Below are positions 49,300-54,355 of a DNA stretch of 64,000 nt, piece by piece. The DNA comes from an uncultured Candidatus Saccharibacteria bacterium (GTDB taxonomy: Bacteria; Patescibacteriota; Minisyncoccia; UBA6257; UBA9933). Numbering within the stretch: the stretch's first letter is position 1; each line of letters starts with the position of its first letter. The position numbers and the translations under genes are program-made. Under the pieces are notes generated by a model. It was given only the letters and a program-made list of their open reading frames with translations. It had not been told where the DNA came from and searched no databases. The stretch spans positions 65,238 to 129,237 of the forward strand of contig CAZXNT010000001.1 of the NCBI GenBank assembly GCA_964642155.1. The letters are read 5' to 3'.

Positions 49300-49812
49300 T
49301 TATTTTTTTAATATTACTCTTGGCATTCGATCTAAGTCAATAAAATAATCGGCTACTTCTTTAAGTTTAGCGGACGCGCTTCTGCCGAACGCCGCCACCT
49401 CCACTTCTCTGCCCAATCCCCATTTTAGATATTCAACTAAAGGAATAAAATCTCCATCGCCGGTCACTAAAATAATAGCGTCCAAAGAATTTGCCATCCT
49501 GATGGCGTCAACCGCCATCCCCACGTCCCAGTCAGCTTTTTTCATTCCGCCCGCGAAAATCTGAAGGTCTTTCATTCTTAATTCAATACCGGATTTTTCC
49601 AAGGCTTCAAAAAAAGACGCTTCGCCGGAAATAGCCGATTGCTCGCTCTTTACCACATAGCCGATCGCCCTTATTAATTGGCGATTGCCAATAAGCGTTT
49701 TTATCAATTCTTTATAATTGACTCTGGCGTGATGGATATTCTTCGCCGAATGGTAAAGATTTTGAATATCAATAAAAATTCCGACTCGCTGATCTTTGTG
49801 TTTAACTAACAT
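49300..49812 (-). CDS. NYN/LabA-like PIN-fold domain protein
   Basis: VGIFIDIQNLYHS ... AIILVTGDGDFIPLVEYLK motif. Inserted between rpsO and pnp. Confidence 0.65.
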   Translation of the reverse strand: MLVKHKDQRVGIFIDIQNLYHSAKNIHHARVNYKELIKTLIGNRQLIRAIGYVVKSEQSAISGEASFFEALEKSGIELRMKDLQIFAGGMKKADWDVGMAVDAIRMANSLDAIILVTGDGDFIPLVEYLKWGLGREVEVAAFGRSASAKLKEVADYFIDLDRMPRVILKK

Positions 49813-50223: not shown

Positions 50224-50314
50224 AATTTATAAAATTTAACACAGGTTAAAATAAAAAACAAGGGCAGTAAAAAAGTTTTGTTTGCAAAGAAGAAGAGGGC
50301 GCGAAAGGGACTCC

Positions 50315-50710
50315 CTATAAGATTTTTGAATACTCTTGATAATTTTTTCTTACCACCGCTTTCCAACTTGCGGTTTCGTTTTCACCCCCTAAATCATTTT
50401 TACTATATACCAATAAAACACGGACGGTTGAAGTGTGTTTATGAACAGCGATAATGCACCTATTGCCGGAAGCGTGTCTAGACTCTTGAGTTCCATGCAC
50501 ACGGAACTCTGTTTTGCAAACCCTTACATCCCCAGCTTCAGTAATGGTTTCTGCTATGTTTGTTTGCCCGATCAATGTATCAATGCGCTTAAACTCCTCG
50601 TGCATAGCAGTCCAAGTTACATCCCATGCCCCTTTATGCTTCTTTTTAAATTTAGAGATAAAGTGTCGTTCCGCGTATCGTTCTATAATAACCGTATAAT
50701 TAGTAAACAT
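50315..50710 (-). CDS. putative toxin partner of the HTH-Panacea antitoxin (family not recognised)
   Basis: 131-aa ORF overlapping the upstream antitoxin-like gene by 11 bp. GC-rich relative to its surroundings. Confidence 0.4.
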   Translation of the reverse strand: MFTNYTVIIERYAERHFISKFKKKHKGAWDVTWTAMHEEFKRIDTLIGQTNIAETITEAGDVRVCKTEFRVHGTQESRHASGNRCIIAVHKHTSTVRVLLVYSKNDLGGENETASWKAVVRKNYQEYSKIL

Positions 50711-51377
50711 AATCGGGGTCCTGTTGAGTTATCAATTCATACGGAATCATTTCATCTGGAGCGCAGAGTTTGTAGGGTAACTGTTCGTGAGTAAAATCAA
50801 TAATTTCTTGAGTTCTTTTATTTTTCCACTTTGTGGATATTTTTTTCATTAAATTAACTTCTTCGGTTTTAAGAAAATCAAGTTTTTGGTGTTGCGCGCC
50901 CGCGCCAATAAGAATGGCGCCACCCTTATAATCAACAGTTATTTTCCCTTCCTCCTCAAGCTCTGCAAGCGCTCTGAAATACGAATCGGGCACAGGACCA
51001 TACGTTCGGCGCAAATATTGCATCCCGCTCATACTCTCAAGATTCGTGTAATACCACGCGAAATCAGCCAAATAGAGAAGCTTGGCTAATTTAGTTTTTG
51101 GAACTTTTCCGTCAGTAGAAATTGAAGATTTAAGAAAAGCAATAATCATTTGCTTATATTTTTCATACTTTGGCAAAGTGGCTTTTGCAAATTCTTCGAT
51201 AGAAATGCCGAACAGATTTTTTAACTTCTGCGCTTCATCTAGGGTGAGACCCCTGTTCCCGCGCTCAATGGCTACATATGAAGGACGGGAAAGCCCCAAT
51301 TTATCCGCGACAAAAGACTGCGAAAAATCCCGCTCTGTTCGAAGAGCTTTTATAAATTGCGCATATTTATTAATCAT
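50700..51377 (-). CDS. HTH (XRE-family) plus Panacea/DUF4065-domain protein, putative antitoxin
   Basis: N-terminal Cro/C1-type HTH (FVADKLGLSRPSYVAIERG). C-terminal KLAKLLYLADFAWYY resembles the DUF4065 signature. Confidence 0.55.
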   Translation of the reverse strand: MINKYAQFIKALRTERDFSQSFVADKLGLSRPSYVAIERGNRGLTLDEAQKLKNLFGISIEEFAKATLPKYEKYKQMIIAFLKSSISTDGKVPKTKLAKLLYLADFAWYYTNLESMSGMQYLRRTYGPVPDSYFRALAELEEEGKITVDYKGGAILIGAGAQHQKLDFLKTEEVNLMKKISTKWKNKRTQEIIDFTHEQLPYKLCAPDEMIPYELITQQDPDYVY

Positions 51378-51481
51378 ACTAGAAGTATATTTATGTATGT
51401 AAAAAAGTCAAGCATTAAGTGTTGATAAATTTTACATTTAAAAATTAAGGTTGTAAGATAACGGCGACGATCATCCTTTGG

Positions 51482-52294
51482 TCATGGACGCCCTAGTGGA
51501 AATGCCCGAGGCGCAAATGCCCTTATGTTTGCCCCTCCTACCCCTTTTGCGCGCACAGAGAAACGCTCCCGTCCTTTCAAACTATACTTAAAAACATCGT
51601 TCACTTCTCGAATATTTTTATTTGCTTCTTTTACATATATAGGTTGAACTTCTGTTCCTAAATAATTTCTTCTATGTAATAAAGCAGCTACGGCAGTGGA
51701 ACCCGAACCCATAAATGGGTCCAAAATAGTATCTCCTTCTTTGCTGAAAAGTCGCATGAACCACGAAGGTAATTCAATTGGAAAAACAGCGCTATGATTT
51801 TTTCTCGAAGAGGATTCGACAGCTGATTCAAATATATTACTCAAATACAATCTATGTTCTTCTTCAAAAACTATTACATTATGCGGGAAAACCTTTTTCT
51901 TATTAAGCCAATTTGAAACATTGCGACCTAAATGAGAATTGTTTTTAGAAATGTGTCTGACAAAATCATTTTCGCTCATTGATTTAAAACGCTTCTCTGC
52001 CCAGCTCCCAATTGGAACCTTAACCGCATCTTGATACATTTTGAAATCTTTTTGCTTTGTGAATTGTAAACAACATTCCCATGAATCACGAAACCGATTG
52101 GGCCATTTTCCAGGGAATGAATTTTTCTTATACCAACAATACTCTTCGATCCAAAACCATCCTTGCTTTTTCAATTCCAAAATTAACTCCAGAACATAAG
52201 TTTCTCGCTCACCATTTTTGGGATGTTCTTTTATATTGAGAATAAATAAACCATCGTCTTTTAGTACTCTGTAAAGTTCTTTTGTGATCGGCAA
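51482..52294 (-). pseudogene. N-4/N-6 DNA methyltransferase (PF01555-like), N-terminally truncated and lacking the DPPY motif
   Basis: C-terminal SAM motif DPFMGSGSTAVAA and RVLKDDG block are present. The frame is closed by an upstream stop about 30 codons before TTG, with no DPPY/NPPY. The sortase gene's 3' end occupies the expected N-terminal coding region. Confidence 0.5.
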
Positions 52295-52371: not shown

Positions 52372-53007
52372 TTATTCTTTATCAGTAAAAACTATGAGTC
52401 GATCAGAACGAGTTTTCTCGGCCTTATTCCAAACTCCCGCGCAAGTAATAAGGTTAAGGTGCGCTTTTCCGTCACTTGAACCAAATACATCCGAGGCATC
52501 CGCGTTCTTGTCATATCTCCGAATTTCGCGCACAACAAAAGTAACAATCGCCCCTTTTTCATTTTCAATATACATTTTATCACCTTTGCGTATTTTATGT
52601 AAATTATCAAATACTGCCGGTATATCATTTTTCCAGCCATAGTGCCCGGCAATAACAGAACTTCCGTTTTCTCCGGGGCGCGGGCCGAGATTAAACCACG
52701 CTACCCCAATAGGACCTTTAGGCACGTCCATTGCTCCGTCGGATGTAAGACCTACATACTCGACGGAGGCATCAACCTTTATACTTGGAATTTTGAGATG
52801 CACCGGAAGTCCCATACCCCCTTGTTGCTGGGTCAGTATTTGGGATAATTGCTGCTGAAGCTGGACTATCTGTTGTTGAATCTGGGTAATTAATGTTTGA
52901 AGTTGGCTGTCAGTCATTCGCTGAGCCTTTACGACAAGGTTCGGCGATAATAAAAAAAACACTACTATAAATAATAAGATTGATAAACTCTTTCGGAAAA
53001 ATTTCAT
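52372..53007 (-). CDS. sortase (TLITC active site) with N-terminal TM and Gln-rich coiled coil
   Basis: Catalytic His (VIAGHYGW), Cys (LNLITCAG) and Arg (TRSDRLIVF). Signal-anchor MKFFRKSLSILLFIVVFFLL. Confidence 0.75.
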   Translation of the reverse strand: MKFFRKSLSILLFIVVFFLLSPNLVVKAQRMTDSQLQTLITQIQQQIVQLQQQLSQILTQQQGGMGLPVHLKIPSIKVDASVEYVGLTSDGAMDVPKGPIGVAWFNLGPRPGENGSSVIAGHYGWKNDIPAVFDNLHKIRKGDKMYIENEKGAIVTFVVREIRRYDKNADASDVFGSSDGKAHLNLITCAGVWNKAEKTRSDRLIVFTDKE

Positions 53008-53113: not shown

Positions 53114-54355
53114 CTACTTAACACTAGGAGGAAAACCTGTATTTGGCAGTTTTATCATTGCTGAGAGTTGAGCTTGAAGTAATTGTACTAATTGCTGCAT
53201 CAGAGGAATGAGCTGTTGTTTAATCTGGTTAATCTGGGCTAAAATCTGCTGGTTTGATACAGGTGTCGGTGTCGGTGTCGGAGCTACTGTTAGTACAACC
53301 ACAGGAGTTGAGGTTGGTGTTGGTGTTGGGGTAGGGGTAGGGGTAGGTGTTGGTGTTGGTTGGGTAACATTAACCACCACACTGTTCGACGCACCAGCAC
53401 AATTTATTGAATACGTTGTATTTGATGTCGGTGAAACGCTAACACTTCCTGAAATAGCATTTCCTGTTGAGAAGTTGGTACCAGAACAACTTGCCGCATT
53501 TGAGCTTGACCACGATAGGGTTGACGAATTACCACTTATGATTGAGGTTGGATTTGCTGAAATTGTTGCTGTTGGGGTTGGTGGTGGAGTAACGGCAACA
53601 ATTGGCTTGGTAACAGTGTTTGCATCTAACGTAGCTGCGGTCTGTGCGAGTGCCCTGCCGTTTAGCGTTGCACCGGTGTTCAGCACAATTGCTGTTTGAT
53701 CCAATATATTTCCATTAAAGACAGCTGTCGTTCCAAGTGTCGTTTGGCCAGCAACCTGCCAGAAGATGTTAGCGGCCTGCGCACCGCCACTCAGGACAAC
53801 CTGCACAGCGGAACTCACAGTGAGATTTTGCGCTATCTGAAATATCCAAACATCATTGGCACCGCCCGAGAGAGTGACATTCGTTGGTATTGTCACGCCG
53901 GTACTCCATTTATAAAGTCCCGGAGCTAATGTCATTCCGCCAATATTTCCCGCACCCAATTCAGTCGCAGTCGGATTTGTTCTCCCCGCGGCATCAGTGT
54001 ACGCGGTTTCCATGTCACTTACCGCTGTAGTCATTGTAGCTGGAGTAGGAGCCGTATAGTCGGCTGCATATACTTTTCCGGTTACTATGGCTGATGTCGA
54101 AAATGTATTCGAAGCGTCCAGTATTAATCCGAATCCAGTTATGGCAGTCGCGGCGATTGGGCTCACTCCAATATCTCCAGTAATTGAGGTATTTCCGGTG
54201 GTTGAGATCCCCGACTTCGTTAGAATCACGAAATTGCCTGCTGATCCGAGATTTACTGTCGCTGGACCTGCAGCAAGCACAGCCATTGGCCCGGTGAGAC
54301 CAAACATAAATGCAAGACCTAATACAACCACTAAACCCTTGTTAAATTTTTTCAT
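53114..54355 (-). CDS. surface protein with DUF3494 (ice-binding-like) domain, Ig-like domain, PT linker, Gln-rich coiled coil and C-terminal LPNTG
   Basis: LGSAGNFVILTKSGISTTGNTSITGDIGVSP matches the DUF3494 signature. (PT)n linker. The ORF ends KLPNTGFPPSVK. Confidence 0.7.
   Translation of the reverse strand: MKKFNKGLVVVLGLAFMFGLTGPMAVLAAGPATVNLGSAGNFVILTKSGISTTGNTSITGDIGVSPIAATAITGFGLILDASNTFSTSAIVTGKVYAADYTAPTPATMTTAVSDMETAYTDAAGRTNPTATELGAGNIGGMTLAPGLYKWSTGVTIPTNVTLSGGANDVWIFQIAQNLTVSSAVQVVLSGGAQAANIFWQVAGQTTLGTTAVFNGNILDQTAIVLNTGATLNGRALAQTAATLDANTVTKPIVAVTPPPTPTATISANPTSIISGNSSTLSWSSSNAASCSGTNFSTGNAISGSVSVSPTSNTTYSINCAGASNSVVVNVTQPTPTPTPTPTPTPTPTSTPVVVLTVAPTPTPTPVSNQQILAQINQIKQQLIPLMQQLVQLLQAQLSAMIKLPNTGFPPSVK

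Follow-up and report, generated by a model that had tools for sequence, protein, structure and literature searches.

Is the small protein encoded beside an HTH-Panacea antitoxin in a Saccharibacteria genome its toxin, and if so, is it a toxin of a new kind? The window analysed here is a 64,000-nucleotide stretch of contig CAZXNT010000001.1 from an uncultured Candidatus Saccharibacteria bacterium. On its minus strand it carries panA (50700..51377, 225 amino acids) and, downstream, panT (50315..50710, 131 amino acids), both with ATG starts and with open reading frames (ORFs) that share 11 bp (50700-50710). An initial annotation of the same DNA had read panA, which combines a helix-turn-helix (HTH) with a Panacea domain, as a PanA-type antitoxin and its partner as a possible novel PanT toxin; the coordinates and overlap that it gave are accurate in every detail, and the strings that it quoted are present. 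We consider it likely that the two genes form a type II toxin–antitoxin (TA) cassette of the PanAT type, in which PanT would be a HigB-2/RelE-like, ribosome-dependent mRNase and PanA would both neutralise it by binding and repress the operon through its HTH.

The antitoxin half of that assignment is borne out by Pfam, in which PanA exceeds the gathering scores of both HTH_3 and SocA_Panacea. The XRE-type HTH occupies residues 9-63 (51189..51353, minus strand; PF01381, E 4.4e-12), and its profile matches PbsX-family and controller (C) proteins in the PDB; the PDB search with the PanA profile returned HTH proteins only and nothing for the Panacea part. The initial annotation had proposed a DUF4065 profile search, which places the Panacea/DUF4065 domain at residues 97-202 (50772..51089, minus strand; PF13274, E 3.7e-11) with 44.4 bits against a gathering score of 25.7. 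This match spans profile positions 1-112 of 113 and begins in the segment KLAKLLYLADFAWYY (residues 96-110), and the domain also matches phrog_1281 (E 2.7e-12). Beyond the Pfam match lies a conserved C-terminal tail, KLCAPDEMIPYELITQQDPDYVY (residues 203-225; 50703..50771, minus strand). In an alignment of PanA homologs (A4), tail positions K203, C205, E209, I211, P212, Y213, L215, I216 and Q218 are invariant or nearly so, and the conservation of the tail is 0.68 across 78 PanAs taken from the loci described below. PanA is conserved along its full length, this tail included, and the predicted model shows the tail as a coil with a low predicted local distance difference test (pLDDT) score. These 23 residues are a candidate toxin-binding segment.

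Panacea was first described in SocA, and NCBI names some of the 2352 PanA homologs (E<=1e-5) ‘SocA domain-containing’ or ‘DUF4065 domain-containing protein’. Both facts would suit a SocAB-like type VI system, with PanA acting as a proteolytic adaptor that passes PanT to a protease and no inhibition by binding. Such an arrangement is hardly probable: the NCBIfam SocA_antitoxin model (NF047745) gives PanA 11.6 bits against a cut-off of 190, the partner is RelE-like and not SocB, and all the PanATs tested in earlier work formed stable complexes typical of type II (Kurata 2022, PMC8832971).

The pairing of the two genes is strict. When one genome per GTDB species was scanned with a profile of the close PanT family (A1), relatives turned up in 142 species, and the locus statistics given here are those of the best 80 of these 142 loci. 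A PanA homolog lies immediately upstream on the same strand in 79 of the 80, and the remaining locus ends at a contig edge, so that the conserved adjacency on which the initial annotation had staked its claim is present in 79/79 evaluable loci. The panA stop precedes the panT stop by 379-394 nt in 78 of the 79, most commonly by 385 nt, which equals an 11-nt overlap; the overlap in these 78 loci ranges from about 8 to 17 nt with a mode of 11. In independent look-ups the pair, its overlap unchanged, recurs in unrelated surroundings, one of them a genome in which UGA encodes glycine. A chance origin of the two ORFs is ruled out by this synteny together with the 433 homologs of PanT and 2352 of PanA.

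Fold, predicted active site and spread of PanT

PanT has no Pfam or NCBIfam match at E<=1, and its PADLOC and PHROGs matches are weak or non-significant. Nor did 98 diverse family members, scanned against Pfam, point to a consistent family; one gave a weak match to PF06296 (E 0.014). The partner thus lies outside every curated sequence family, as had been claimed. Its structure is more telling. An AlphaFold2 model built on a 38-sequence alignment is confident (mean pLDDT 88.4, predicted template modelling score 0.84) and shows strand beta1, three helices, four antiparallel strands and a C-terminal helix, the arrangement of N-terminal helices packed on a 4-5-stranded antiparallel sheet that defines the RelE/ParE fold. 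The top Foldseek match in the PDB is archaeal RelE (1wmi_A, E 2.9e-4, probability 1.0), with a template modelling score of 0.78 normalised on the target, followed by HigB2, Thermus thermophilus RelE, HP0892, YoeB, YafQ and Cami1. The predicted fold is therefore not new. Against the BFVD viral fold library the model gave weak matches, none at E<=1e-3.

The sequence link appears at the level of a broad profile. Profile A1 returned noise alone from PDB sequences (E>0.6). A profile of the 98 diverse members (A2, mean column identity 33%) searched against the whole PDB gave a single match, Vibrio cholerae HigB-2 (E 0.015). Aligned directly with hhalign, A2 matches HigB-2 with E 1.6e-5 and probability 79%, and a 30-sequence HigB-2 family profile with E 5e-6 and probability 86%; the HigB-2 query sequence was checked to be identical to PDB 5JA9. 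This alignment places a predicted active site at 50399..50503 (minus strand), a span that includes the S-x-[KHR]-x-S-G-N-R loop of residues 77-84. R70 (50503..50501) aligns with Arg51 of V. cholerae HigB-2, R84 (50461..50459) with Arg64, Y102 (50407..50405) with Tyr82 and K104 (50401..50399) with Lys84, the four HigB-2 residues whose mutation to alanine lowers activity 170- to 3000-fold (PMC5416850). R84, K104 and K66 are each conserved in 97 of the 98 diverse members of the PanT family and Y102 in 96; K, H or R occupies position 79 in every one, E112 is invariant, and R70 is invariant within the close family.

The suggestion that PanT is a novel kind of toxin is therefore not upheld: it has a predicted RelE/ParE fold and a HigB-2 profile match in which the catalytic residues align, and PanT clusters resembling RelE and HigB-2 had already been predicted (Kurata et al. 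2022, PMC8832971). A second member of the same fold class, ParE, poisons DNA gyrase rather than cleaving mRNA, and PanT could be a toxin of that type, but this is very unlikely. RelE, YoeB, HigB and YafQ outrank every ParE in both fold searches, HigB-2 is the sole match at the sequence level, and the catalytic R/R/Y/K set of the RNases is aligned and near-invariant in PanT. As judged from the alignment, the residue pattern fits an mRNA endonuclease of the RelE/HigB-2 type and not a gyrase poison of the ParE type.

At E<=1e-3 there are 433 PanT homologs, nearly all of them exactly 131 amino acids long, 60-95% identical and from metagenome-assembled genomes of Patescibacteria. Every one goes under the name ‘hypothetical protein’, and no Pfam domain occurs in any. 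An exhaustive profile search of 1.84 billion cluster representatives yielded 205 PanT clusters at 50% identity, which makes this a family of moderate size. For the 142 species of the genome scan, almost all of them Patescibacteria, the record titles mostly name lineages of that group, and the bins bear the labels Paceibacteria, Nomura-, Yanofsky-, Uhr-, Komeili-, Magasanik- and Saccharibacteria; a few are titled Nanoarchaeota, Pacearchaeota, Gammaproteobacteria, Bacteroidia or Verrucomicrobiota, labels that may be mis-assigned. Among 10 distant cluster representatives, one is from Coriobacteriales.

For a TA toxin, 60-95% identity over so many lineages is an unusually high degree of conservation, and eight predicted PanTs proved non-toxic in Escherichia coli (Kurata 2022, PMC8832971). 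Both observations would accord with a RelE-fold protein that is not a toxin and has some other role, for instance as a co-regulator with PanA. We regard this as quite improbable, given that the RNase catalytic residues are retained under strong constraint, the anatomy of the operon is that of a classic TA system, and the cassette is mobile.

Some members depart from the family pattern. Two proteins (P0253, 130 amino acids, and P0264, 131 amino acids) match the family over their first ~42-64 residues only and are unrelated thereafter; both are probably decaying copies in which the toxin gene has been hit by a frameshift or another disruption. Seven distant members (L094, P0178, P0179, P0181, P0222, P0227 and P0248) have tryptophan at conserved glycine positions, for example SWNR in place of SGNR. 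The L094 gene (L094:1501-1905, on a 1.28-Mb contig of GCA_034675525.1) has three in-frame TGA codons at exactly such glycine positions, so that UGA must stand for Gly in this genome (code 25, the Gracilibacteria/Absconditabacteria type), the tryptophans in the database having come from translation with the wrong code. The L094 copy retains the HTH-Panacea partner and the 11-nt overlap.

Cassette boundaries, control region and neighbourhood

The pair moves as a unit with defined ends. Compared by blastn with five other loci, the window shows 71-92% identity from 51436-51445 to 50311-50322, and similarity ends at the panT stop codon. The copy at locus L013 is 92% identical, yet its flanks are unrelated and its neighbouring genes different. 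Because DNA similarity stops at these ends and the flanks are unrelated, the mobile unit is the ~1.13-kb promoter–panA–panT cassette (50315..51440, minus strand). Searches of PLSDB plasmids, as of IMG/VR viral contigs and GenBank phages, gave no relatives, and thus no vector for this mobility. No third conserved gene accompanies it among the flanking ORFs, and no longer conserved operon is indicated: 135 flanking ORFs hold 122 Pfam families, the commonest of which occurs in 4 ORFs only.

Upstream of panA, an alignment of seven loci shows a conserved non-coding block of ~60-70 nt, while the remaining flanks are unrelated; an nhmmer model of the block recovers it directly before panA in 47 of the 80 loci. 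Within it lies an operator-like imperfect palindrome, TGTAAAATTTATCAACA (51420..51436, minus strand), for which the family consensus is TGTCAA-N5-TTGACA and which is perfect in some loci (L016 and L065, for example). It is the predicted binding site of a PanA HTH dimer. A sigma-70-like promoter follows (51384..51411, minus strand), with a -35 hexamer TTGACT (51411..51406), a 16-nt spacer and a -10 hexamer TATACT (51389..51384). It scores 10/12, the best match in the region, and both hexamers are conserved across loci. From the -10 hexamer to the panA ATG (51377) there are 6 nt, and 5-10 nt in other loci, and no Shine-Dalgarno sequence is present. Such close spacing makes it probable that the panA mRNA is leaderless or near-leaderless, in the window and likewise throughout the family. 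A Shine-Dalgarno-like AGGA for panT (50719..50722, minus strand) stands 8 nt before its ATG, inside the coding end of panA; this placement and the 11-bp overlap are consistent with translational coupling of panA and panT.

The neighbours of the cassette include housekeeping genes (BipA, MetK, GatB and PrfA) and restriction or defence genes (Type ISP, GmrSD, DpnI, MmeI and RhuM). In the window it has rpsO/NYN/pnp on one side and, on the other, an N6/N4 DNA methylase truncated at its N-terminus. The methylase ORF (51482..52294, minus strand), directly upstream, has a TTG start, matches PF01555 at profile positions 35-221 only and is separated from the next gene by ~77 nt; the missing N-terminus is presumably where its catalytic DPPY-type motif would lie. 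The ORF is probably a truncated remnant, and therefore hints that the spot is a variable or decaying island. At locus L011 (L011:1-3232, on a 92-kb contig, JGI 3300033074), a HEPN_AbiU2-like gene directly precedes the cassette, with a Shedu SduA_C gene close by, surroundings that resemble a defence island. At locus L008 a large serine recombinase is encoded ~2 kb downstream.

These surroundings bear on what the cassette is for. Chiefly, it might be an abortive-infection module against phages with Panacea as its sensor, a role that the authors of the NetFlax study prefer for this domain (PMC10440598) and one that would refine, and is compatible with, a type II PanAT cassette. The restriction and defence neighbours listed above point that way, as do the HEPN_AbiU2 and SduA_C genes of L011, the truncated methylase adjoining the window copy and a weak PADLOC match of PanA to the candidate system PDC-M19A (E 0.002). 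We see it as possible but doubtful. Many copies sit among housekeeping genes, neither cassette protein has a strong PADLOC match, and no homologs of the cassette were found in IMG/VR viral contigs or GenBank phages. Somewhat in the same vein, the cassette may not be an ordinary addiction TA at all. It could be a lineage-specific switch for abortive infection or stress, with Panacea sensing a phage or host cue, or its toxin, with the rigid SGNR loop and the extra helix, could have been retuned to the atypical ribosomes of these ultrasmall episymbionts or to a non-ribosomal RNA; we rate this broader departure as unlikely.

Two features near the window copy are recorded for completeness. A gene for an NYN-domain protein, a predicted RNase, lies beyond rpsO (49300..49812, minus strand), and another lies directly upstream of the cassette at L013 (L013:770-1333); NYN genes account for 4 of the 135 flanking cases, which may be coincidence. 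On the other side, a sortase gene (52372..53007, minus strand) adjoins a gene (53114..54355, minus strand) for a 413-residue ice-binding-like protein (PF11999) whose N-terminus resembles a signal peptide, whose linkers are rich in Pro and Thr and whose C-terminus bears an LPNTG motif. The two are likely a sortase–substrate pair in a Patescibacterium.

Proposed mechanism and significance

In the mechanism that we favour for this type II PanAT cassette, transcription from the upstream promoter would yield a probably near-leaderless mRNA with panA first and panT second, translation of the two being coupled through the 11-bp overlap. PanA would neutralise PanT through direct binding, by the Panacea domain, the conserved C-terminal tail or both. 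PanT freed from PanA would enter the ribosomal A site and cleave the mRNA being translated, leading to growth arrest; cleavage would be effected by a basic active site made up of K66, R70, the K/H/R residue at position 79, R84, Y102 and K104. The XRE HTH of PanA, probably as a dimer, would bind the palindrome next to the -35 hexamer and so autoregulate the operon. The analysis itself shows the domain identities, the fold, the residue conservation, the strict synteny, the ends of the cassette and the conservation of the promoter and operator DNA; the toxicity of PanT, its dependence on the ribosome, the segment of PanA that binds it, the binding to the operator and the leaderless start are inferred.

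Several points weigh against this mechanism. On the side of the toxin, PanT is linked to HigB-2 in sequence by a weak match over ~60 columns only (E 0.015; hhalign probability 79-86%), and it falls below the threshold of every curated RelE/ParE hidden Markov model (PF05016, PF06296, PF15738, PF05015 and NCBIfam). The RelE fold also houses the ParE toxins, which are not RNases, and position 70, the equivalent of Arg51, is K or R in 52 of the 98 diverse members only. The HigB-2-like PanT clusters of Kurata et al. are all marked ‘notest’, and the eight predicted PanTs that lacked toxicity in E. coli come from the same study (PMC8832971). On the side of the antitoxin, an MqsR associated with PanA in Herbaspirillum was not rescued by its own PanA (Kurata 2022, PMC8832971), and in one MqsR system studied by NetFlax the HTH-Panacea part alone was insufficient to neutralise (PMC10440598). 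Because the model of PanA is poor (pLDDT 54, with the HTH its sole confident part), the neutralising interface proposed here is a guess.

What was already known is that this configuration exists as a prediction, listed in the founding Panacea paper, and PanT belongs, as a divergent member, to the best-known toxin superfamily; the general knowledge of TA systems is unchanged by the cassette. New are the definition of the PanT family, its confidently predicted fold and the putative assignment of its active site, along with the boundaries of the cassette, a putative operator and the extent of spread in Patescibacteria. A protein called ‘hypothetical’ in hundreds of Patescibacteria genomes can thereby be placed in a defined family with a predicted fold and a probable catalytic mechanism, and the cassette is seen to travel as a minimal ~1.1-kb PanAT unit with its own putative operator. 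It could serve as a compact model for an HTH-Panacea protein neutralising a RelE-type toxin, an untested combination, and could be put to use as a counter-selectable or stabilising module in the genetics now emerging for Saccharibacteria and further bacteria of the candidate phyla radiation (CPR).

Comparison with known systems

PanAT systems were defined by Kurata et al. (2022, PNAS, PMC8832971) from 2,281 Panacea proteins and 88 putative toxin clusters with many folds. HTH N-terminal domains occur in 343 of the PanAs, and all the pairs tested formed complexes, as in type II systems (PMC8832971). The window pair has what marks a PanAT: a Panacea antitoxin, conserved adjacency and no longer conserved operon. 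Among the PanT clusters of Dataset S1, T14, T28 and others have HHpred matches to HigB-2, RelE, YoeB or ParE, all untested (PMC8832971). In the later NetFlax work, RelE/ParE is among the commonest folds in the TA network, and Panacea either neutralises directly or merely accompanies another domain that does so (PMC10440598).

The closest counterpart is cluster T14, for which the best HHpred match is HigB-2 (99.73%) and the toxins are ‘hypothetical protein’ with no match in CDD; among its members are Ca. Saccharimonas aalborgensis and a TM7 genome of oral origin (WP_015641600.1 and WP_129619247.1; PMC8832971). Like the window, the Saccharimonas and TM7 rows of T14 have an HTH-PanA, the antitoxin first and an intergenic distance of -11, and T14 shares with our PanT profile HigB-2 as its best match. 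Unlike the window, T14 also has members in Methanobacteria and Pedobacter, spacings of -17, -8, +2, +6 and +12, and sometimes no HTH. From the likeness in layout, bacterial radiation, spacing and HigB-2 match, it is very probable, if unproven, that the PanT family of the window is T14; Ca. Saccharimonas aalborgensis itself is absent among the best 80 of the 142 loci from the A1-profile genome scan.

Outside PanAT, the cassette shares with SocAB of Caulobacter, a type VI system, the Panacea domain in the antitoxin. SocA lacks an HTH and acts as a ClpXP adaptor, whereas PanA carries an HTH and scores far below the NCBIfam cut-off for SocA; SocB, which inhibits DnaN, has no relation to RelE, whereas PanT has the RelE fold. 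The RelE toxins of E. coli and Pyrococcus horikoshii (aRelE) and YoeB are only 10-21% identical to PanT in sequence, and their antitoxins differ, RelB being a ribbon-helix-helix protein and YefM Phd-like, both unrelated to the HTH-Panacea architecture of PanA. In comparison with HigB-2 of V. cholerae (Pfam PF06296 ‘RelE’; PDB 5JA8, 5MJE and 8A0X), PanT is longer (131 against 110 amino acids), has a third N-terminal helix and does not reach the family model PF06296. In the beta2-beta3 loop PanT rigidly conserves the motif S-x-[K/H/R]-x-S-G-N-R, whereas the loop of HigB-2 is disordered and rich in Gly and Lys. The operons also run in opposite order, with the toxin first in HigBA-2 and the antitoxin first in the window cassette, and the antitoxins are built the other way round: in HigA-2, which lacks Panacea, a disordered neutralising segment stands at the N-terminus and the HTH at the C-terminus, whereas PanA has its HTH at the N-terminus and its Panacea domain at the C-terminus.
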